DNA from: Octopus vulgaris
Taxonomy: Eukaryota
Direction of reading: 5' to 3'
DNA: 64,000 nt
Assembly (NCBI GenBank): GCA_951406725.2
Contig: OX597815.1
Span: 93,806,001 to 93,870,000, forward strand
This document shows, piece after piece, positions 5,551-62,538 of this stretch (the first letter of the stretch is position 1; the number at the start of each line of letters is the position of its first letter). A program made the position numbers and the translations under genes. The notes beneath the pieces are model-generated. The model did no database searches and was not told the origin of the DNA. It was given only the letters and a program-made list of their open reading frames with translations.

Positions 5551-7075
5551 GAATGAATGAATGAAATTATTGTGTACAGTGCTCAGGTGCACCACAACTT
5601 GTCAGAAAGTGCATATAAAGTATATGCAGTAATGTACAAATGTCTGGAAAGCGAACAATGTATGAGTCATATACATGCTTGTGTGTGTATGGAGGGGAGA
5701 AAATCAGGTGTAGTGTTGGCGAATCTCAGAAAGCATGGAAGTTTGGAAGGATGCAGTGCTCCGACAACTAACAACTGATGCCAGCAGTTTGTTCCATGCT
5801 TCAGCAACTCTTAGCATGAAAAAATGTTTCCTGAAGTCATGGGAGCTGTGCTGTTTTCTGACTTTGTAAATATGTCCACGGGTGTTAGACGGGTGGAGTT
5901 TGAAAAGGTGCTCAGAGTTATAGTTTGTAAGATGGTTAATAATTTTATGGGTGTCTGCCAAGTCAGCTGCCAGGGAAGTAAGGTGTTCATGCCCAGGGAA
6001 GTAAGGCGTTCAGAATATGGCAAATGCCTGATGGAGGGTATTCTTTTGGTTGCACTTCGCTGAACGGCTTCCAGATGATTAATATCCTGGGCAAGATAGG
6101 GGTTCCAGACCCGTGATGTAAATTCCAGATGAGGTCTTACCATAGCTATATAAAGCCGCAGATAGATAGCTGGAGAGCGGCTCACAAAGGACTTGGTGAG
6201 AGATGCCAAGACACCCTCAGCCTTCTTGGCAATTTTAGCGATGTGTTTTGTCCAACGCAAATCGCTGTTGACAATAACACCCAGGTCACGTTCACATGAA
6301 GACTTTTTGAGATTAGTGTTGTGGAGGGAGTAAGTGGACACTGGGTTTCTCCTCCCAAAATTCATGGTGGTACATTTGTCCACAGCCAGCTTGAGTTGCC
6401 AGTCCATGATCCACTGCTGCATTGTGTCCAGGTCTGCTTGCAATAGAGATCTATAGTGTACAGGATCTGACCTCTTTATTTCGAGGTACAGCTTGATGTC
6501 ATCTGCATATTTCAGCACTGTGGCATTCTTTAAGTTGGCATCTATGTCATTAACATATGCAACAAATAAAAGGGGGCCACGAACAGATCCCTGTGGTACA
6601 CCAGATGTCATCTCATAGGGTGAAGAGTGCTGTCCTAGAACTGTGACAACCTCTTTTTGGCCAAAAATAAAGGACTTTAACCAGTTATAGAGTTCGTCAC
6701 TTACGCCCAATGCAGAGAGTTTCACCATAAGTCTTTTGTGTGGCACAGAGTTAAAGGCCTTAGCAAAGTCCAGGTAAACAACATCCACCCAGGATCCGCG
6801 ATCAGTGATTTGGGTAATGTCCTCAAGAAACTCGATGAGTTGATTACAGCAGCTGGAGTTAGGAATAAATCCAAATTGTGTTGGCTGGATGAGGCAGTGA
6901 GACTTTCAGAAGTTCCAGAGGGTTTCCCTGACACAGGATTCCATCAGTTTGGCGATGCAGCTAGTAAGACTAACGGGGCGATAGTTGACAGATGATGTGC
7001 GGTTACCTTTTTTTGAACAGAGAGATAACACTGGCAGTTTTCCACTGCTCTGGAGTAACACCATTGTCAAGACAG
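5551..7075 (-). mobile_element. 5'-truncated CR1-clade LINE (ORF2 RT fragment, 3' UTR, (ATTC)n tail)
   Basis: ORF 5811-6788 has VYLDFAKAF, GVPQGS-GPLLF, YADD and RDLGV motifs. Upstream NYRPVSLTS; C-terminal TRGH...FF..RV...WNKL in a shifted frame. GAATGAATGAATG on + at the 3' end. Confidence 0.9.
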
Positions 7076-8134: not shown

Positions 8135-8428
8135 TGTGGGATGACGTCAGCAGCTGGACGTCAGCAGCCGGGTGCGTTGACCGGAAGCTGGGGCAACCGG
8201 AAGGGGTCAGCCGTCAGGCGTGCGCAGGGAGCAGGGAATTGCGCCTTTTCCAACGTGGGTCGTGCAGGTGACAAGATGTGTGAGGACGTTGCTAAGGGTT
8301 TGGGCTAGCAGCTGCTATCGTTAGTGTTTGGGTCGGGGCTGTGTGGAAGGACTAGTCACCACTGGAGGGTCTCCGTCACTAAGAAGAGAAGGTAGGTGCC
8401 TCTATATTCAAATCGCGCACACACTACA
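8135..8428 (+). repeat. 5' LTR, family A copy 1
   Basis: TGTGGGATG...CACTACA; direct repeat of 11638-11931. Confidence 0.97.
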
Positions 8429-8440
8429 AGCTATTTCGGC
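8429..8440 (+). promoter_or_regulatory. Atypical primer-binding site complementary to nt 1-12 of tRNA-Phe(GAA)
   Basis: AGCTATTTCGGC directly abuts the LTR CA. Its reverse complement GCCGAAATAGCT is the 5' end of metazoan tRNA-Phe as I recall it. Identical in copy 2. Confidence 0.7.
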
Positions 8441-8472
8441 CGTTCTTAAACATTTACATTTTTTTCAACACG

Positions 8473-9237
8473 CTGTCTGCAAAAATTAGGATCGCCAGTG
8501 ACGTCATCAGACCTTTTAATGGCGAAGGCGATGTAGTGGCCTGGATTCGCAAAATCAGGCTGGTGGCAAGACTGCAGGGCATAAGCGACGTAGCGAGTCT
8601 TATGGCGCTGTATTTAGAAGGGAGCGCGTTAACGCTATACCTAGAGATGGATGAAGAAGAACGGCTCAGCGAGGAGAATATAGAGCGACGCTTGCGTGAT
8701 GCCTACATGGAATGCGAGTACACAGCTTTTGCTAAGCTAGGTGCAATCAGGTGGACGGGAGGCCAAGTGGATGACTTTGCATCAGAAGTTAGAAGGCTAG
8801 CGACTCTGGCCGGGTTTGCGGGAGAAGGGCTGGAGAGAGCAGCCCAGCTGGCGTTTGTCAATGGTTTCCCCGACGATGTAGGGATTCACCTACAACGACT
8901 GCCCGGGATTAAAAAGATGCCGCTGAGCGAACTTGTGGCTCAGGCTCGCGTGTTGACGAGACACTCTGGGCGAAAGGCGATAGCGATGGCAGTGACGGAG
9001 GCGCGTAAAGACGGACGACGTCCCGAGAAAGAGGTACAGAAGCTTACCGTGCAACGAGAGCGGCCGTTCTCAGGACGGTGTTTTAGATGCCAGGGACCGC
9101 ACATGGCGCAGGACTGTACGCAGCCAGGGCCCGTTTGCTATCGATGCAGGCAGACAGGGCACATTGCCCGTGATTGCGACCAGGGAAACGACCGCGGGGA
9201 AGTTGCTGCCTCTCGAACTTTCCCCACAAACGAGTAG
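8473..9237 (+). pseudogene. gag: gag of family A copy 1 (start ATG mutated to CTG)
   Basis: Open frame with two zinc knuckles, CFRCQGPHMAQDC and CYRCRQTGHIARDC. Copy 2 has ATG at the equivalent position. Confidence 0.9.
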
Positions 9238-9241
9238 AGGC
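9183..9241 (+). promoter_or_regulatory. -1 ribosomal frameshift signal (G GGA AAC plus predicted H-type pseudoknot)
   Basis: Slippery heptamer at 9183-9189 in gag phase, with pol in the -1 frame. Stem 1 GGGGAAGTT/AACTTTCCCC; loop GCCTCT can pair with downstream AGAGGC. Confidence 0.8.
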
Positions 9242-11624
9242 GCTATTGGAGACGCTGCCATTGATTGACGTGGAGGCCGAGGGGGAGACGTTCAAGGCCC
9301 TTGTGGATACGGGCTGTACGACCACCCTGGTGACTTCGAGGGTGACGAAGGAATGGAACGGGGTGAGTAGTGTCCGGGCGGTCGACGGCAGCGAAATCCG
9401 TTGCAGGGGCAGCAGCAAGGTAGAGATAGTGGTGCGCGGCGCGACGCTAAGGCTGCAGGCAATTGTGGCCGAACGCGTGATAGATGGAGTTGATGTGGTG
9501 ATGGGGATGGACGCCATCAACTGCCTCGGTGGCGTCAGTGTTGTGGGAAATGAGGTCACGTTCGGAAGCGTGGGGGCGTCGTGCACTGCGAGTCAGGATC
9601 GCCAGAGAGAGCAGAGCCCCGCGAGGGACTGTGCCGCTTACACCATCGAGGACAAAGACTTTCAGGCGGCGTTCGATGGTCAGCGGTGGACGATAGAGTG
9701 ACGATGGAAGGACGAGCCCCCGACACTGGAGAACAGGGTGAGCTGTTACCAGCATACCCTGAAAGGCCACGCCAGGGTCGAGTTTGAAGACGAGGTGGAT
9801 CAAGGAAGGGGTCCTTGTCCCTTGGAAGGAGGAGGTAGCGGGCGGAGTGCTACCCCTGATGGCGGTGGTGCAGCTTACAAAGGGAAAAGTCAGACCGGTG
9901 CTGGACTTCAGGGAGCTAAACCAGCACATATCATGTCACACGGGAGGTGAGGCAACAGACGTTTGTGGTGAGGCATTACGTAAGTGGAGACAGTCGACTG
10001 AGGCAGTGACGATTGTCGACTTGAGATCGGCATACTTGCAGCTCCATGTGAGCGACAAACTGTGGCGATATCAGCTGGTGCGGTACAAGGGCCGGACGTA
10101 CTGTCTAACCAGGCTGGGTTTCGGGTTGAATTCCGCTCCGAAGATCATGGCGGCAGTGCTTAGGTCCGTCCTAGGGAAAGACGGCAAGATTAGAAAGGCC
10201 ACCAGCTCCTACATTGACGACATTTTGGTGGACGAAACTGTAGTGCCAGCCGACGAGGTAGTTAGACATCTGGAGAAGTTCGGACTGATTGCTAAGCCAC
10301 CGGAGTCGATTGAAGGGGGAGCCGTGCTGGGGCTGAAGCTGCAAAGAGATGGATCAAGTGAATTGGTGTTCCGGAGAGGAAATGAAAACCCAGAGCTGAG
10401 TTCTAGCGTCAGCAGGAGAGAGCTGTTCTCGGTGTGTGGAAAGTTGGTCGATCACTACCCGATCGCTGGATGGCTGCGCACGGAGATGTTAGTGAAGCGC
10501 CGTCTAGGAGTTCTAGGTAAATTGATCGCCGAGTTCGGACTGAAGCTGAACGTGGTTTTCGTACCTTCGGAGAAAAACAGGGCGGACGTACTGACCAGGG
10601 TGAAAAGAGCGTGGTTGGAAGAACCGGAGGAGGCCCGGAAAGGGATAGCTGCGGCGTGTCGGTTGGATGACTCTGAACTGAAGAAACTGCATGCTATGCA
10701 TCACCTGGGTGTGGACAGGACCCTGTATCTGGCGAAAAAAATTGATGCTGACGTCACTAGGAGAAGCGTCCAGAAGGTGGTCGGGAGCTGCTCCAGTGTC
10801 AGTCCATCGACCCTGCTCCGTGTGGGCATGAACAGGGAAGCCTTTCCGTGGAGCAGAACTGGAAAAGGCTAGCTGTGGATGTGACACACTACCGTCAGCG
10901 AATGTACCTCTCCATAGTCGACTGCGGGCCGGGCCGGCTGGCCATTTGGAGGGAGTTGAGATCGGGCATTGCTGACGAGATCACGCAGATCCTGAACGGG
11001 ATATTTTTAGAGAGAGGTTCCGTGGAAGAACTACTGATAGACAACGGGGCGGCGTTTCGTTCGGAAGCATCGAGGGTTATGCTTGATCGGTGGAATGTGC
11101 GACGCTTGTTCAGAGCAGCGTATAGGCTGAGCGGTTACGGGATCGTGGAGAGGCACCATCGGACAGTCAAGGCCATAGCGGAAAGAGGGCACATTTCGTC
11201 GCTTGAAGCAGTTTTTTGGTACAACTTGTCTCCCCGATCCGGACAGGCTGAGGAATCTGTGCCGCAGAGAGCTGTGTTCAAATATGAATGGAGCCACCCG
11301 AGCAAAGCGCCGGAGGGTCACGAGGAAGAGAAGGGACCCGTTCGCGTGAAAATAGGGGAGGAAGTCTGGGTCAAGCCACCAAAGGCGCGCTGTACGTCTC
11401 AATGGAGCAGAGGAACGGTGACGGCGATCAATTCCAGAAGTAACATATCCGTAGATGGAACACCACGACACGTCTTGGACCATTGCAGGATTGTTGCTTC
11501 GACGGACGATGATTCTGGAGAGGGGGAGAACGAGGAGCCCAGCTTGAGAAGATCTCGACGAGCAAGGCGCTCTCCCGGTTGGATGGTGGACTACAACATG
11601 GAGCGGAGAGATTGTGAACTTTAA
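9183..11624 (+). pseudogene. pol: pol (protease-RT-integrase) of family A copy 1, disrupted
   Basis: Protease ALVDTGC; RT DLRSAYLQ, FGLNSAP, YIDD; integrase HHCC and D,D,E core. Stop at 9699-9701. Deletions of 8, 1 and ~420 bp relative to copy 2. Confidence 0.93.
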
Positions 11625-11637
11625 GATCAGGGTGGCG

Positions 11638-11931
11638 TGTGGGATGACGTCAGCAGCTAGACGTCAGCAGCCGGGTGCGTTGACCGGAAGCTGGGGCAAC
11701 CGGAAGGGGTCAGCTGTCAGGCGTGCGCAGGGAGCGGGGAATTGCGCCCTTTCCAACGTGGGTCATGCAGGTGACAAGACGTGTGAGGACGTCGCTAAGG
11801 GTTTGGGCTAGCAGCTGCTATTGTTAGTGTTCGGGTCGGGGCTGTGTGGAAGGACTAGTCACCACTGGAGGGTCTCCGTCACTAAGAAGAGAAGGTAGGT
11901 GCCTCTATATTCAAATCGTGCACACACTACA
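11638..11931 (+). repeat. 3' LTR, family A copy 1
   Basis: Direct repeat of the 5' LTR with about 10 substitutions. Preceded by purine-rich AAGATCAGGGTGGCG. Confidence 0.97.
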
Positions 11932-13029: not shown

Positions 13030-14414
13030 TACAGAGGTATCAAGCTGTTGGATCAGGTAATGAAGGTTACGGAGAGGGTCATAGCCCAACTAATTAGAGA
13101 GAGAGTTAGTTTAGATGAGATGCAGTTTGGGTTCGTGCCAGGGAAGAGTACCACTAATGCTATATTCCTGGTAAGGCAGCTGCAGGAGAAATACCTAGCA
13201 AAAGATAAGTCCCTGTACCTGGCTTTCATTGACATGGAGAAAGCTTTCGACAGGGTCCCCCAATCCCTTATCTGGGATAGTTTTTGTATGTGGCAGATGC
13301 TCAGGAGCAATAAACACTGAAAATGCTCTGAGAGCACTTCCGCCACATTGCAGGAAGAAAAACTAGAAATAGTTGATAGCTTCCGTTACCTAGGTGACCA
13401 AGTCAGTAGCGGGGGCGGGTGTGCTGAAAGTGTAACTGCTAGAGTAAGAATAGCTTGGGCAAAGTTCAGAGAGCTCTTACCTCTGCTGGTGACAAAAGGC
13501 CTCTCGCACAGAGTAAAAGGCAGACTGTATGACGCATGTGTACGAACAGCCATGCTACATGGCAGTGAAACATGGGCCATGACTGCTGAGGATATGCGTA
13601 AGCTCGCAAGAAATGAAGCCAGTATGCTCCGATGGATGTGTAATATCAGTGTTCATACTTGCTAGAGTGTAAGTACCTTGAGAGAAAAGTTGGACCTAAG
13701 AAGCATCAGTTGTGGTGTGCAAGAGACGTTTGCGCTAGTATGGTTCATGTGGTGAGAATGGATGAAGATAATTGTGTGAAAAAGTGCCACACCCTAGCAG
13801 TTGAGGAAACCTGTGGAAGAGGCAGACCCAGGAAAACCTGGCATGAGGTGGTGAAGCACGACCTTCGAACTTTAGGTCTCACCGAGGAAATGACTAGAGA
13901 CCGAGACCTTTGGAAGTATGCTGTGCATGAGAAGACCAGGCAGGACAAGTGAGACCATAACCCGTGGCCTCTACCTGGGATGTAGCCAATCCACTTATGC
14001 ATACCTTTCTTTCTTGGGACACAAAACTCTACTTGTGAAGACCTGTTGAGGCAAGTGAAAATCAAAATCGATCTACATCAACAGAAATTGCAGCTGCGAT
14101 ACCAGTGCCGGTGGTACGTAAGAAAACCATCCGAACGTGGCCGTTGCCAGTGCCACCCTGACTGGCCTCATGCCGGTGGCACGTAAAAAGCACCATCCAA
14201 TTGTGGCCGTTTGCTAGCCTTGTCTGGCACCTGTGCCGGTGGCACGTAAAAAGCACCCACTACACTCACAGAGTGGTTGGCGTTAGGAAGGGCATCCAGC
14301 CGTAGAAACATTGCCAGATCAGACTGGGCCTGGTGTAGCCTTCTGGCTTCCCAGACCCCAGTTGAACCGTCCAACCCATGCTAGCATGGAAAGCGGACGC
14401 TAAACGATGATGAT
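13030..14414 (+). mobile_element. RTE-clade LINE, internally deleted, with intact 3' UTR/tail
   Basis: YRGIKLL...QFGFVPGKSTT...AFIDMEKAFDRVP is fused directly to the post-RT part (LEIVDSFRYLG...HGSETW...RGRPRKTW). Tail CCATGCTAGCATGGAAAGCGGACGCTAAACGATGATGAT. Confidence 0.92.
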
Positions 14415-20149: not shown

Positions 20150-21508
20150 TACATCTTATAGAAACTCCATAAGATGTACCTGGTGTAAACTATGGACACA
20201 TATATGTAAGCTATAGACACATATATACGTAAACCATGGACACATATATGTATAAAATATATTTTATAGAAACTCCATAAGATGTACCCGGTGTAAGCTG
20301 TAGACACATAAGAGATACAGCAATATCAAAGGAAGATTGACTAGTTTTTGTGTGAGAGAGATGCACAGGTGCAATAAACACCAAAAATGTACAGAAAACA
20401 CAGCCCATCACATGCCAGGGGGAAAATCTAGAATTAGTTGATAGCTTCTACTACCTTGGCCACCAAGTCAGTAGTGGGAGTGGATGCTCTGAGAGCATAG
20501 CTGCTAGAATAAGTGTGGGTTGGGCAAAGTTCAGAAAGCTCCTACCTCTTCTGGTAACAAAGAGCCTCTCACTCAGAGTGAAATGTAGACTATATGATGC
20601 CTGTGTGTGAACAGCTATGCTACACAGTAGTGAAACATGGTCTGTGACTGCTGAGGACATGCGTAGACTTGAAAGAAATGAAGCTAGTATGCTTCGCTGA
20701 TGTGTAATGTCAGTGTGCATGCACGACAGAGAGTGAGCATCCTAAGAGAAAAGTTGGACATAAGAAGCATCAGCTGTGGTGTGCGAGCTGATGACTGTGT
20801 TGGTATAGTCATGAGATGTGTATGTATGAGGACAGCTGTGTGAAGAAATGTCACACTCAAACAGTGCAGGGAACCTGTAGAAGAGGTAGACCCTGGAAGA
20901 TGTGGGATGAGGTGGTGAAGCACGACCTTCAAATGTTGGGCTTCACAGAGGCAATGACAAGCAACCGAGACCTTTGAAGATATGCCATGCTTGAGGAGAT
21001 TCAGCAAGCCAAGTGAGGTCGTAGTTGTGGCCGATGCCTGTGTTGCATAACTGGCTCATTAAAAGCACCCTCAATCGTTGGGTAATATGCCATGCTTGTG
21101 AAGACCTGCTGAACCAAATGAAATTGATGCGGTAACTGATGCCAGTGCCAGTCTCACATAAAAAGCATCATTTGAGTGTGGCCAATGCCTGTGACATGTA
21201 AAAAACACCATTTGAGTGTGGCCGATGCCAGTGTCATCTGACTGGTACCTGTGCCGGTGATACATAAAAAGCACTATTCAAGCGTGGCTGATACCAGTAC
21301 CACCTGACTGGCTCCCATACTGGTGGTATGTAAAAAGTACCCACCACACTCTCAGAGTGGTTGCCATTAGGAAAGGCTTCCAGCTGTAGAAACCTTGCCA
21401 AATTAGAATGAGGCCTGGTGCAGCCTCCTGGCTTACCAGTTCTCAGACAAACTGTCCAATACATACAAGCATGGAAAGCAGATGTTAAACAACGATGATG
21501 ATGATGAT
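20150..21508 (+). mobile_element. 5'-truncated RTE-clade LINE
   Basis: Same C-terminal RTE coding remnant and the same 3' tail (...AAACAACGATGATGATGATG) as 13030-14414. Its 5' end contains a local tandem duplication. Confidence 0.88.
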
Positions 21509-51968: not shown

Positions 51969-52672
51969 ACATCATTATCATCATTTAACATTTGCCTTTC
52001 ATGCTGGCATGGGTGGGTGGGTTTGTCAGGAGTTGGCCAGGCAGAAACCGGTGTGATTGCTGATTTTTCAATGATGTTGTTAAGTAGGTTTGAGAGACCA
52101 AATCTGGCCAGTTTGAACATAAAACAGGTAGAAAATTTGGGGCTGGATTTGACCAGTTTAAATGGTAATGGGTTAATGATTTTTATTAAGGATTTTCATG
52201 TTTTTATTAGTCTTTTACATTTTGTTTGAAACATTAAAATTCCTAAATCTATTGACATTCTTAGACCTTCATAAGTCTTATGAATGAAAATAAAACTTTC
52301 ACCAAAATATGGTTTCATGTTAAATCACCAAAAAAGGAATCTGTATTTGAAATAAAAGAATGTAATGTAGTGTGTGCGCGATTTGAATATAGAGGCACCT
52401 ACCTTCTCTTCTTAGTGACGGAGACCCTCCAGTGGTGACTAGTCCTTCCACACAGCCCCGACCCGAACACTAACGATAGCAGCTGCTAGCCCAAACCCTT
52501 AGCAACGTCCTCACACGTCTTGTCACCTGCACGACCCACGTTGGAAAAGGCGCAATTCCCTGCTCCCTGTGCACGCCTGACGGCTGACCCCTTCCGGTTG
52601 CCCCAGCTTCCGGTCAACACACCCGGCTGCTGACGTCCAGCTGCTGACGTCATCCCACACGCCACCCTGATC

Positions 52673-55543
52673 TTAAAGATCACAATCTCTCCGCTCCATG
52701 TTGTAGTCCACCATCCAACCAGGAGAGCGCCTTGCTCGTCGAGATCTTCTCAAGCTGGGCTCCTCGTTCTCCCCCTCTCCAGAATCATCATCCGTCGAAG
52801 CAACAATCCTGCGAAGGTCCAAGACGTGTCGTGGTGTTCCATCTACGGATACGTTGCTTCTGGAATTGATCGCCGTCACCGTTCCTCTGCTCCATTGAGA
52901 CGTACAGCGCGCCTTTGGTGGCTTGACCCAGACTTCCTCCCCTATTTTCACGCGAACGGGTCCCTTCCCTTCCTCATGACCCTCCGGCGCTTTGCTCGGG
53001 TGGCTCCATTCATATTTGAACACAGCTCTCTGCAGCACAGATTCCTCAGCCTGTCCGGATCGGGGAGACAAGTTGTACCAAAAAACTGCTTCAAGCGGCG
53101 AAATGTGCCCTCTTTCCGCTATGGCCTTGACTGTCCGATGGTGCCTCTCCATGATCCTGTTACCACTCGGCCTATACGCTGCTCTGAACAAGCGTCGCAC
53201 ATTCCACCGATCAAGCATAACCCTCAATTCTTCCGAACGAAACGCCGCCCCGTTGTCCATCAGTAGTTCTTCCACGGGACCTCTCTCTAAAAATATCTCG
53301 TTCAGGATCTGCGCGATCTCGTCAGCAATGCCCGATCTCAACTCCTTCCAAATGGCCAGCCGGCCCGGCCTGCAGTCGACCATGGAGAGGTACATTCGCT
53401 GACGGTTGTGTGTCACATCCACAGCTAGCCTTTTCCAGTTCTGCTCCACGGAAAGGCTTCCCTGTTCATGCCCACACGGAGCAGGGTCGATGGACTGACA
53501 CCTGGAGCAGCTCCCGACCACCTTCCGGACGCTTCTCCTAGTGACGTCAGCATGAATTTATTTCACCAGATACAGGGTCCTGTCCACACCCAGGTGATGC
53601 ATAGCATGCAGTTTCTTCAGTTCAGAGTCATCCAACCGACACGCCGCAGCTATCCCTTTCTGGGCCTCCTCTGGTTCTTCCAACCACGCTCTTTTCACCC
53701 TGGTCAGTACGTCCGCCCTGTTTTTCTCCGAAGGCACGAAAACCACGTTCAGCTTCAGTCCGAACTCGGCGTTCAATTCACCTAGAACTCCTAGACGGCG
53801 CTTCACTAACATCTCCGCAGCACCTTTCGTCCGCACTCTCCTGTCACCGGTGATCACCGATCCTACCCAGCCAAGCACAGTGGCCGAATCCGTCTGGATT
53901 TCAATCGTGCGCAGCCCCCATTTCAAGGCCAAGTTCACCCCTTTCAGCAGCGCGTCTAATTCGGCGACATTGATGTGGTTGAAATCATCTGCTTTCCGAA
54001 GCCAGGCCGCATCCTCCACCGCAGTGCCTTCAATTGCCAACACCACCCCTATCGCTATACTGCTAGCATCACACCAGACGGTCCCGCATTTCGTCTTGGG
54101 CACGTACCAGTTCCCCCTGACCGGGTCTTCCGCTCATGTCCTCTCTAGGATTTCCTGCATCATCGCCACCGTCCCTTCTCCCACCTTGTCGCCCCACCTC
54201 TCTCCTTCTGCTCGTCTCTTGGTGTAACTACACGCCGTGCGCAGCCATCCAGCGATCGGGTAGTGACCGACCAACTTCCCACACACCGAGAACAGCTCTC
54301 TCCTGCTGATGCTGGAACTCAGCTCTGGGATTTCATTTCCTCTCCGGAACACCAATTCACCTGATCCATCACTTCGCAGCTTCAGCCCCAGCGCAGCTCC
54401 CCCTTCAATCGACTCCGGTGGCTTAGCAATCAGTCCGAACTTCTCCAGATGTCTAACTACCTCGTCGGCTGGCACTACAGTTTCGTCCACCAAAATGTCG
54501 TCAATGAAGGAGCTGGTGGCCTTTCTAATCTTGCTGTCTTTCCCTAGGATGGACCTAAGCACTGCCGCCATGATCTTCGGAGCGGAATTCAGCCCGAAAC
54601 CCAGCCTGGTTAGACAGTACGTCCGGCCCTTGTACCGCACCAGCTGATATCGCCACAGTTTGTCGCTCACATGGAACTGCAAGTATGCCGATCTCAAGTC
54701 GACAATCGTCGCTGCCTCAGTCGACTGTCTCCACTTACGTAATGCCTCGCCACAAACGTCTGTCGCCTCACCTCCCGTGTGACACGATATGTGCTGGTTT
54801 AGCTCCCTGAAGTCCAGCACCGGTCTGACTTTTCCCTTCGTAGGCTGCACCACCGCCATCAGGAGTAGCACTCCGCCCGCTACCTCCTCCTTCCAAGGGA
54901 CAAGGACCCCTTCCTCGATCCACCTCTCCACCTCATCTTCAAACTCGACCCTGGCGTGGCCTTTCAGAGTATGCTGGTAACAGCTCACCCTGTTCTCCAG
55001 CGTCGGGGGCTTGTCCTTCCATCGCCACTCTATCGTCCACCGCTGATCATCGAACGCCGCCTGAAAGTCTTTGTCCTTGATGGTGTAAGTGGCGCAGTCC
55101 CTCGCGGGGCTCTGCTCTCTCTGGCGATCCTGACTCGCAGTGCACGACCCCCCCACGCTTCCGAACGTGACCTCATTTCCCACAACACTGACGCCACCGA
55201 GGCAGTTGATGGCGTCCATCCCCATCACGACATCAACTCCATCTATCACGCATTCGGCCACAATTGCCTGCAGCCTTAGCGTCACGCCGCGCACCACTGT
55301 CTCTACCTTGCTGCTACCTCTGCAACAGATTTCGCTGCCGTCGACCGCCCGGACACTACTCACCCCGTTCCATTCCTTCATCACCCTCGAAGTCACCAGG
55401 GTGGTCGTACAGCCCGTATCCACAAGGGCCTTGAACGTCTCCCCTTCGGCCTCCACGTCAATCAATGGCAGCATCTCCAATAGTGCCTCTACTCGTTTGC
55501 GGGGAAAGTTCGAGAGGCAGCAACTTCTCCACGGTCGTTTCCC
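52673..55543 (-). pseudogene. pol: pol of family A copy 2 (single frame, two premature stops)
   Basis: In-frame ORFs 54134-55552 (PR, RT FIDD), 53558-54103 (RNase H WCDAS, INVAELDA, QTDS) and 52673-53521 (integrase). Slippery site GGGAAAC at 55537-55543. Confidence 0.93.
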
Positions 55544-56253
55544 TGGTCGCAATCACGGGCAATGTGCCCTGTCTGCCTGCATCGATAGCAAACGAGCCCC
55601 GGCTGCATACAGTCCCACGCCATGTGCGGTCCCTGGCATCTAAAACACCGTCCTGAGAATGGCCGCTCTCGTTGCACGGTAAGCTTCTGTACCTCTTTCT
55701 CGGGACGTCGTCCGTCTTTACACGCCTCCGTCACCGCCATCGCTATCGCCTTCCACCCAGAGTGTCTCGTCAACACGCAAGCCTGAGCCACAAGTTCGCT
55801 CAGCGGCATCTTTTTAATCCCGGGCAGTCGTTGTAGGTGAATCCCTACATCGTTGGGGAAACCATTGACAAACGCCAGCCGGGCTGCTCTCTCCAGCCCT
55901 TCTCCCGCAAACCCAGCCAGAGTCGCTAGCCTTCTAATTTCTGATGCAAAGTCATCCACTTGGCCTCCCGTCCACCTAACTGCACCTAGCTTAGCAAAAG
56001 CTGTGTACTCGCATTCCGTGTAGGCATCACGCAAGAGTCGCTCTATATTCTCCTCGCTGAGCCGTTCCTCTTCATCCATCTCTAGGTATAGCGTTAACGC
56101 GCTCCCTTCTAAATACAGCGCCATAAGACTCGCCACGTCGCTTATGCCCTGCAGTCTTGCCACCAGCCTGATTTTGCGAATCCAGGCCACTACATCGCCT
56201 TCGCTATTAAAAGGTCTGACGACGTCACTGGCGATCCTAATTTTTGCAGACAT
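55489..56253 (-). CDS. gag: gag of family A copy 2 (intact ORF, 254 aa)
   Basis: ATG to TAG with two C-terminal zinc knuckles. Confidence 0.9.
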   Translation of the reverse strand: MSAKIRIASDVVRPFNSEGDVVAWIRKIRLVARLQGISDVASLMALYLEGSALTLYLEMDEEERLSEENIERLLRDAYTECEYTAFAKLGAVRWTGGQVDDFASEIRRLATLAGFAGEGLERAARLAFVNGFPNDVGIHLQRLPGIKKMPLSELVAQACVLTRHSGWKAIAMAVTEACKDGRRPEKEVQKLTVQRERPFSGRCFRCQGPHMAWDCMQPGLVCYRCRQTGHIARDCDQGNDRGEVAASRTFPANE

Positions 56254-56285: not shown

Positions 56286-56297
56286 GCCGAAATAGCT
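56286..56297 (-). promoter_or_regulatory. Atypical PBS (complement of tRNA-Phe 5' end), copy 2
   Basis: The + strand reads GCCGAAATAGCT immediately before the LTR (TGTAGTG...). Confidence 0.7.
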
Positions 56298-56746
56298 TGT
56301 AGTGTGTGCGCGATTTGAATATAGAGGCACCTACCTTCTCTTCTTAGTGACGGAGACCCTCCAGTGGTGACTAGTCCTTCCACACAGCCCCGACCCGAAC
56401 ACTAACGATAGCAGCTGCTAGCCCAAACCCTTAGCGACGTCCTCACACGTCTTGTCACCTGCACGACCCACATTGGAAAAGGCGCAATTCCCCACTCCCT
56501 GCGCACGCCTGACGGCTGACCCCTTCCGGTTGCCCTAGCTTCCGGTCAACGCACCCGGCTGCTGATGTCCAGCTGCTGACGTCATCCCACATGTAATATA
56601 GTAAAATTAATATAATATTGATAAGTATACATATGATAGTGGTTGTCTAATATGCATGCAATATAAAAATGACAGCTGACCAATTGATAGGTTGATAGAT
56701 AGATGGGGAGAGAGGGAGAGTGTGTATGTGTTTGTGTACACATATA

Positions 56747-61069: not shown

Positions 61070-62538
61070 GGATTGCTCTAACTGCCGAGTCACTATCATA
61101 CCTAGAGGAAAAGTTTCTGGTGTGGAAGCACAGATTAGAATCGAAGGGCCTTAGAGTCAACCTAGCTAAAACCAAAGTCTTAATGAGTAGGAAAGCAGAC
61201 AAACCACAAATCCCTTCAGGTAGATGGCCCTGCTTGATCTGTAAAAAAGGCATAGGTAGAAACTCCATAAGATGGACACATAAGAGGTGCAACAATATCA
61301 AAGGAAGGCTAACTGGGAAGATAGTTTTGGTATGTGGCAGATGCTCAGGAGCAATAAACACTGGAAATGTGCAGAGAACAGCTTCTGTCACATTCCAGGG
61401 AGAAAAACTATAAGTAGTTGATAGTTTCAGTTACCTAGGGAACCAAGTCAGTTGCGGGGTTGGATGCTCTGAAAGTGTAGCTGCTAGAATAAGAATAGCC
61501 TGGGCAAAGTTCAGAGAGTTCCTACCTCTGCTGATGACACAGGTCCTCTCGCTCAGAGTAAAAGGTAGACTGTATGACGCATGTATATGAACAGCCATGC
61601 TACATGGCATTGAAACATGGGCCATGACTGCTGAGGACATGCGTAAGCTTGCAAGGGATGAAACCAGTATGCTCCACTGGATGTGTAAAGTCAGTGTGCA
61701 TACACGACAGAGTGTAAGCACCCTGCAAGAAAAGTTGGATTTAAGAAGCATCAGACGTGATGTGCAAGAGAGACGACTGTGTTGGTATGGTCATGTGTTG
61801 TGAATGAATGAGGACAACTGTGTGAAAAAGTGTCACACCCTAGCAGTTGAAGGAACCTGTGGAAGAGGTAGACCCAGGAAGACCTGGGATGAGGTGGTGA
61901 AGCATGACCTTCAAACATTGGGCCTTACTGAGGCAATGACTAGTGACTGAGACCTTTGGAGATGTTCTGTGCTTGAGAAGACCTGGCAAGCCAAGTGAGA
62001 CCATAACCCATGGCCTATGCCAGTGGGTATAACCAGCCCACTTATAAGTGCCCCTCATTCATTGGACAATAAACTTTGCTTGTGAAGACCTGTTGAGGCA
62101 AGTGAAATCAAAATCAAAATTGCTGATGCAGCCAATGACAGTACCGCCTGATTGGCACTTGTGCCAGTGGAACGTTAAAAGCACCATCTGAACGTGATTG
62201 TTGCAAGTGTTGCATATGCCGGTGGCACATGAAAAGACAACATTCGAGTGTGGTCGTTGCCAGTGCTGCCAGACTGGCTCCCATGCAGATAACACGTAAA
62301 AAACACCTTTTGAGCATGGTCGTTGCCAGAACAGCCTGACTGCTCCTTGTGCCGGTGGTACATAAAAGCACGAACTACACTCTCAGAGTGGTTGACATTG
62401 GGAAGGGCATCCGGCTGTAGAAACTTTGCCAGATCAGATTGGAGCCTAGTGCAGCCTTCTGGCTCGTCATTCCTCAGTCAAACCGTCCAACCCATGCCAG
62501 CATGGAAAGTGAACGTTAAACAATGATGATGATGATGA
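61070..62538 (+). mobile_element. 5'-truncated RTE-clade LINE
   Basis: LESKGLRVNLAKTKVL, a Cys-rich insert, VVDSFSYLG, HGIETW and RGRPRKTW; 3' UTR and (GAT)n tail. Confidence 0.9.

Follow-up and report, generated by a model that had tools for sequence, protein, structure and literature searches.

Primers for the minus strand of LTR retrotransposons were sorted into three types in a survey of plant elements: a whole tRNA, a half tRNA cut in the anticodon arm and a self-primer (PMC6317226). As far as this survey and the account of Kojima 2024 (PMC10886601) describe them, half tRNAs are used only in Ty1/copia lineages, with Drosophila copia, yeast Ty5, Osser, Bryco, Bianca and the fungal Helenus as users (PMC6317226, PMC10886601). 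In Tf1, which primes itself, the first 11 bases pair with its primer-binding site (PBS); RNase H makes its cut between bases 11 and 12 (PMC7175516, PMC4600332). Ty1 and Ty3 are described as inheriting their PBS instead of recopying the primer (PMC7472051). Further literature cited here is PMC3601003 and PMC12859917.

The window (the whole stretch of 64,000 nt that was analysed) holds two copies of one LTR element with a putative PBS of another kind. Copy A lies on the plus strand (8135-11931, 3797 nt) and copy B on the minus strand (56591-52366, 4226 nt). They are 96-97% alike and were therefore counted as one family, not as two tests. The family has direct TG..CA LTRs, target duplications of 5 bp (CTTAT for copy A, TTACA for copy B), gag, pol with protease, reverse transcriptase (RT), RNase H and integrase, and a polypurine tract (PPT), as LTR retrotransposons do. 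Within the 294 nt of the LTRs, the pair of copy A differs at 10 positions and that of copy B at 8. In copy A, pol is broken by a stop and by shifts of frame and has lost ~420 nt that cover most of the RNase H region; the pol of copy B carries two in-frame stops. Contigs of four public sequencing runs were used to check the LTR edges independently of the PBS: contigs (10 and 15) exit past 8428 into unrelated flanks, and contigs enter copy A at 8135, again with unrelated flanks. Among the 40 matches listed (109 more exist), no variant fell inside 8429-8440; this was not used as evidence. No RNA run was among the sequencing runs listed as carrying the stretch. The features of both copies are collected in Table 1.

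Table 1. Features of the two copies of the element in the window
Feature	Positions	Strand	Remarks
5′ LTR, copy A	8135..8428	+	294 nt, TG...CA; edges also loose ends in public runs
Primer-binding site, copy A (putative)	8429..8440	+	complementary to nt 1-12 of tRNA-Phe(GAA), flush with the LTR
gag, copy A	8473..9237	+	~254 aa, CCHC zinc knuckles
GGGAAAC, candidate −1 frameshift site	9183..9189	+	end of gag, inferred
pol, copy A	9261..11624	+	protease, RT, DUF7047, integrase
Polypurine tract, copy A	11623..11637	+	purine-rich, flush with 3′ LTR
3′ LTR, copy A	11638..11931	+	followed by second CTTAT target duplication
5′ LTR, copy B	56298..56591	-	LTR pair comparison
Primer-binding site, copy B (putative)	56286..56297	-	same sequence as copy A
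gag, copy B	55489..56253	-	ORF and domain search
pol, copy B	52673..55465	-	protease, RT, DUF7047, RNase H with acidic motifs, integrase
3′ LTR, copy B	52366..52659	-	TTACA target duplication

Copy B has GGGAAAC at the equivalent place, and the heptamer also stands at the end of gag in three of eight relatives checked; the G and N of QGN are nearly invariant in the Gag alignment. This motif is likely to direct a −1 ribosomal frameshift into pol, and in some relatives gag and pol lie in a single frame. Tracts like the PPT of copy A precede TGT in relatives.

The window also contains an unrelated Ty3/Gypsy element (31195-26019, minus strand) with a typical RT, whose two LTRs differ by indels. 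This third element carries an ordinary primer site, CA-AT-TGG at 30808-30799, which we take to be of the tRNA-Trp type, and the presence of such a site indicates that the host supports canonical priming. Other repeats of the window are a non-LTR (LINE-type) RT fragment (5811-6905, minus strand), dispersed old repeats (1288-1640, 13371-13975, 20436-21039 and 61416-62021) and a short interspersed repeat family beginning in CAT runs. No tRNA genes were found in the 64-kb window.

In both copies of the family, the terminal CA of the 5′ LTR is directly abutted by AGCTATTTCGGC (8429-8440 on the plus strand, 56297-56286 on the minus strand), which occurs nowhere else in the 64-kb window, and no TGG follows the 5′ LTR in either copy. 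A sequence-only reading had pointed to this junction and had claimed a 12/12 complement with the 5′ end of metazoan tRNA-Phe(GAA), and both points were borne out, the second for human and Drosophila tRNA-Phe. AGCTATTTCGGC is the exact reverse complement of nt 1-12 of human tRNA-Phe(GAA), a comparison tRNA that may not equal that of the host (start sequence in PMC11706605 and PMC10505166), and it is identical to the last 12 letters of a Drosophila 5′ tRNA-Phe probe (PMC7038984). It is in this one paper that AGCTATTTCGGC and the word "retrotransposon" co-occur, the sequence being there a northern probe (PMC7038984). A given 12-mer is expected at a given site with a chance of 2e-8 to 6e-8, or ~3e-6 by simple arithmetic when ~50 tRNA 5′ ends are allowed.

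The last three bases of the LTR cannot pair with nt 13-15 of the human tRNA-Phe sequence, so pairing ends at the LTR edge. The perfect 12-bp duplex amounts to −18.7 kcal/mol, and the predicted fold of the leader has 7 of these 12 bases mostly in pairs. The PPT end does not mirror the AG with which the site opens, so that integrase end-symmetry would not explain these two bases. The sequence-only reading had given its finding the range 8429..8444 and had proposed a primer fragment of 10-12 nt. The first 12 positions of this range (8429-8440) coincide with the conserved site but 8441-8444 lie outside it, and of the pairing lengths only 12 nt stands, as conservation runs to base 12.

Evidence for this conservation came from relatives whose DNA was chosen by Gag or Pol protein likeness alone, blind to the motif. 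Five loci were obtained by Gag alignment (metagenome contigs) and eight by Pol alignment (stray contigs in genome bins). Three of these loci (L011-L013) are one repeated unit that was counted once, giving 11 distinct elements, and two (L006 and L009) stop short of the junction and were left out, giving nine informative relatives. AGCTA starts the junction in all nine, 11-29 nt 5′ of the first ATG near gag, and is preceded by ACA in seven of them. At the ten junctions (nine relatives and the window), the commonest base is found in 10/10 at +1 to +5, in 9 at +6, 5 at +7, 4 at +8, 8 at +9, 10 at +10 and 9 at both +11 and +12; beyond the site, the counts at +13 to +15 are 5, 5 and 6. The drop after +12 coincides with the point where the mature tRNA begins (tRNA nt 1). 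The LTRs had no detectable DNA likeness, with no mutual blastn match among the 300 nt upstream of the ten junctions, and pairs of Gag proteins among the relatives are 25-54% identical. Conservation of the 12-mer in divergent relatives had been named in the sequence-only reading as a test of its proposal, and the proposal came through it. Collectively, these results suggested that the site is a real, conserved and unusual primer-binding site, its priming role being putative.

The 12-mer of the window recurs in L002, L005 and L011, while L010 has AGCTATTCCGGC, L001 and L003 have AGCTATCACGGC, L004 has AGCTATCCCGGC, L007 has AGCTATCCGGGC and L008 has AGCTAGCCGGTA. Seven of the nine relatives have at most two mismatches to the 12-mer of the window, a likeness equalled by 0-3 of 300 shuffles each; for L007 and L008, 30 and 55 of 300 shuffles did as well, which is no better than chance. 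In L011, the edge of the LTR pair falls right on the junction. In L004, L005, L007 and L010, a purine tract followed by TGT is found 234-334 nt upstream of the junction, an LTR-like length for which the right edge was read from the motif; the junctions of L007 and L008 were placed by means of AGCTA and not from paired LTRs.

The variable bases of the site oppose tRNA positions 4-7 in the acceptor stem, and the constant AGCTA opposes U8-A9-G10-C11-U12. The 12-mer of L007 complements human tRNA-Lys3 over nt 1-12 without a mismatch (sequence in PMC8715211), and that of L008 matches tRNA-Lys(CTT) at 10/12 positions, departing at the last two bases (sequence in PMC10878346). Thus, the earlier attribution of the primer to tRNA-Phe is kept for the family of the window but does not extend to these two relatives. 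The lineage seems, from these complements, to be tied to a position on the tRNA rather than to one particular tRNA.

The remaining variants were not assigned. In viral contigs, GCCnnnnTAGCT opens Thr, Val and Phe tRNAs alike, and a scan of these contigs for tRNA starts yielded 11 matches, four in Thr, five in Val and one in Phe tRNAs, and one in none. Since the matches span several tRNA types, the motif is generic and assigns none of the variants of L001/L003, L004 and L010. L001 and L003, both from a single assembly, have their variant in common at 45% Gag identity; a host tRNA common to both would fit this, as would kinship. L005 and L010 are 54% identical in Gag and have different 12-mers. 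In a literature text search, the L001/L003 variant AGCTATCACGGC was not found among the matches listed, and the variants of L004 and L010 had one match each among those listed. Among 90 Gag-bearing proteins, one (P0212) possibly shows a translated trace of the site, which was not used, and the viral contigs contained no relatives and no LTR-plus-site match. A search of the four genome bins with relatives among their stray contigs found no host tRNA-Phe: its 20 pattern matches lay on bacterial contigs and were called Thr, Arg, Lys and similar by ARAGORN; contig G004:C16 has tRNA-Ser genes only.

Several side observations were made on these loci. Contig G004:C16 (L011-L013, L072-L073) is a eukaryote-like contig in a bacterial genome bin and carries three repeats of an 8.2-kb unit, each with one internally deleted member of the family. 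To each unit also belong a pair of tRNA-Ser(TGA) genes and an additional LTR end with primer site and gag start, which follows directly after the 3′ LTR. L006-L010 are animal-type retrotransposon contigs in three bacterial genome bins, most likely through contamination of the bins by host DNA. A different Gypsy-type element on the minus strand near 1572 of L022/L060 has a canonical TGG site with a match of 10 bases to the 3′ end of tRNA-Phe. A viral contig of 134 kb (L071) carries a eukaryote-type tRNA-Phe(GAA) flanked by two tRNA-Ser genes.

Where minus-strand synthesis starts determines the right end of an LTR, so the 3′-OH of the primer must stand opposite base 8428. With nt 1-12 of the tRNA paired, U12 opposes 8429. 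Judged from this geometry and from the conservation of the site, the primer is quite probably a 5′ piece of a host tRNA that ends at about nt 12, whoever cuts it, with tRNA-Phe as the putative source for the family of the window and a tRNA-Lys-type in some relatives. In the particle, a tRNA or its 5′ half or fragment would anneal to the site through nt 1-12. Opening a folded tRNA at nt 1-12 displaces the acceptor stem and most of the D stem, and a 5′ half or fragment already without the 3′ acceptor strand may anneal more easily than the folded molecule. Between U12 and C13, the point at which the duplex gives out at the LTR edge, the RNA would then be cleaved or trimmed back, and the new 3′-OH at nt 12 would prime minus-strand strong-stop DNA, giving a cDNA that ends flush at CA.

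The cut might be made by the element's own RNase H, in a trans version of the cut in Tf1. This cutter is favoured over host nucleases because the family keeps the acidic motifs of RNase H and Tf1 makes such a primer, but our confidence in it stays short of even; copy B has these motifs, as do 32-44 of the 64 rows in the Pol alignment, many of which are partial. Cutting or 3′ trimming of a 5′ half or fragment by host nucleases comes only a little way behind, likewise short of even. Pieces of tRNA-Phe of ~35 nt from the 5′ side are described in flies (PMC7038984), and a 14-nt 5′ tRNA-Lys fragment appears in a mammalian list (PMC10878346). In its most complete version, the proposal describes a fourth priming mode of a deep-branching lineage that stands apart from ordinary Ty3/Gypsy and occurs in several animal phyla: once the 5′ end of a host tRNA has paired with the element RNA, the lineage's own RNase H would cut the tRNA between nt 12 and 13 and so generate a 12-nt primer in trans. 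Taken as a whole, this version is rather unlikely.

Other explanations of the site have to be weighed against a 5′ tRNA piece as primer. The 12-mer may bind a tRNA for packaging, dimerisation or docking of a tRNA that primes from its 3′ end, or may be a small-RNA target, with something else as primer, and multipartite tRNA binding in Ty3 speaks for such a role. However, the 12-mer sits at the junction where minus-strand synthesis starts, none of the ten junctions has a TGG within 8 nt of the LTR, and a second site for nt 13-73 of tRNA-Phe (a stand-in from locus L071) did not go beyond shuffles in 10 of 11 sequences, the remaining one giving 2/40 shuffles; we consider this role improbable. Internal priming by an intact or long tRNA, e.g., from the 2′-OH at nt 12 or 13, would produce a branched RNA-DNA of the kind made by retron RTs. 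It would need no nuclease and fits the same sequence evidence, and the RT of the family is very divergent from ordinary Ty3/Gypsy RTs. The branch would nevertheless need resolving before integration, both Tf1 and copia/Ty5 use a cut and a 3′-OH (PMC7175516, PMC10886601), and branch priming of an LTR element is not reported in the accessible portions of PMC6317226, PMC10886601 and PMC7175516, all of which makes this route very improbable.

Ordinary 3′-end priming would be kept if the primer were the true 3′ end of another host RNA, such as a small RNA or the transcript of a tRNA-derived repeat, ending in the 12-mer. Yet the variants follow different tRNA 5′ ends and conservation ends at tRNA nt 1, and an RNA of this kind would need to mimic both, so that we give the idea very little credence. 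Self-priming from the 5′ end of the element's own transcript, as in Tf1 and sushi, has in its favour that a flush site of 11-12 nt without TGG resembles that of Tf1 (PMC7175516). The sequence-only reading had seen no complement to the 12-mer in the LTR and had named a better match there as a point against its own proposal; in the four LTRs of the window, the longest Watson-Crick run is indeed 4 nt. In the 190-600 nt upstream of the ten junctions, the complement reaches 4-7 nt at unrelated places, with the proviso that the contigs of four relatives may lack part of the LTR. Furthermore, a self-primed element would be free to change the site along with its LTR, but here the LTRs diverge and the site stays conserved. 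For the family of the window, self-priming is largely refuted by the absent complement in the LTRs, and we allow it hardly any weight.

A protein search gave 285 related proteins, with named matches in Palaemon, Oratosquilla, Trinorchestia, Aplysia, Plakobranchus, Argonauta, Hydra and Trichuris, i.e., in crustaceans, molluscs, Hydra and whipworms, and 351 clusters (50% identity) were found at E 1e-30 or better. The elements are compact (~4.2 kb). The sequence-only reading had called the family Gypsy. The order protease-RT-RNase H-integrase in Pol agrees with this label, but it is common to Ty3/Gypsy, BEL, Troyka and retroviruses and hence not diagnostic, and the RT and RNase H domains do not confirm it. 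In eight long relatives, RVT_1 was matched at 1e-4 to 1e-7, compared to 1e-30 for the ordinary element of the window. The Pfam profiles RT_RNaseH and RT_RNaseH_2 were matched in 0/8 of these relatives at E 0.1, RVT_3 in 8/8 and RNase_H weakly in 6/8; the third element of the window does match RT_RNaseH. A PDB profile search placed Ty3 at 2e-7, no better than HIV-2 RT or a betaretroviral integrase. In an RT tree with ordinary Gypsy-type and LINE sequences as its only references, 23 family rows split from four ordinary Gypsy-type rows, on a saturated branch of ~10 changes per column and with the LINE outgroup inside the family. The best match in the ESM Atlas was the family's own cluster, followed by retroviral Pol clusters, which is a lead only. 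No Peptidase_A17 and no BEL-type Gag or Pol profile was found in the ORFs of the window or in the eight relatives, as sought for BEL/Pao. DUF7047 lies after the RT in the Pol of the family, and some of its RT/RNase H motifs presumably recall DIRS elements. Thus, the Ty3/Gypsy label is unconfirmed, resting on domain order with an atypical RT and RNase H, and the family may be an unnamed deep LTR lineage. It may also be among the clades of the mollusc and annelid LTR surveys (MolGy, PolGy or MolAn); the main text of these surveys (PMC6238403, PMC8556966) has no mention of PBS or tRNA, and a motif search of their readable supplements gave no match.

A conserved site for nt 1-12 of a tRNA would represent a fourth type of LTR primer, in a large lineage, and would give short 5′ tRNA fragments a concrete job. 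It explains why PBS finders that seek TGG would miss the family, and elements with such a site might escape silencing by 3′ tRNA fragments, which acts on canonical PBSs. The family also offers a direct test of the relation between tRNA priming and RNase H self-priming. If RNase H does cut in trans, tRNA priming and the self-priming of Tf1 would be joined in one chemistry, and there would be an element-encoded source of 5′ tRNA fragments. A published description of priming by the tRNA 5′ end (nt 1-12) was not found in a search that left most subscription journals and Repbase outside, and neither was a report of a Gypsy group with a non-tRNA small RNA as primer, sought by name; a prior description is possible.

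Compared to other LTR elements of aquatic animals, the family resembles Troyka (Kojima 2025, PMC12440569), a lineage that is likewise Gypsy by domain order with a divergent RT. Troyka elements, however, have CG..CG ends and 3-bp target duplications (PMC12440569), and the TG..CA ends and 5-bp duplications of the family rule out that it is Troyka. PBS, tRNA and primer are not mentioned in the main text of the Troyka paper (PMC12440569).

Compared to canonical 3′-end priming, as in most Ty3/Gypsy elements, BEL and retroviruses, the family shares a tRNA complement just 3′ of the 5′ LTR and the switching of tRNAs between families. The canonical PBS starts with TGG and pairs with CCA, whereas 0/10 family junctions do so. 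With the half-tRNA priming of copia and Ty5, the family has in common a PBS without TGG and, as proposed here, a cleaved 5′ piece of a tRNA as primer. Their tRNA is cut in the anticodon arm and their PBS pairs with that arm, while the PBS of the family pairs with nt 1-12, a partner that spans the 5′ strand of the acceptor stem to the D stem; in addition, the integrase of the family follows RT and RNase H, whereas that of Ty1/copia precedes the RT. With Tf1, Tf2, Tj1 and sushi it would share a 5′-terminal RNA of 11-12 nt on an LTR-adjacent PBS, cut at the end of the duplex to give a 3′-OH (PMC7175516, PMC4600332). Unlike in Tf1 and sushi, where the partner is the element's own transcript, the complement of the family is the 5′ end of a host tRNA. 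Collectively, the comparison suggests a primer whose source would be most like that of the truncated-tRNA priming of copia and Ty5 and whose geometry would be like that of Tf1, in a family that by these features belongs to neither.
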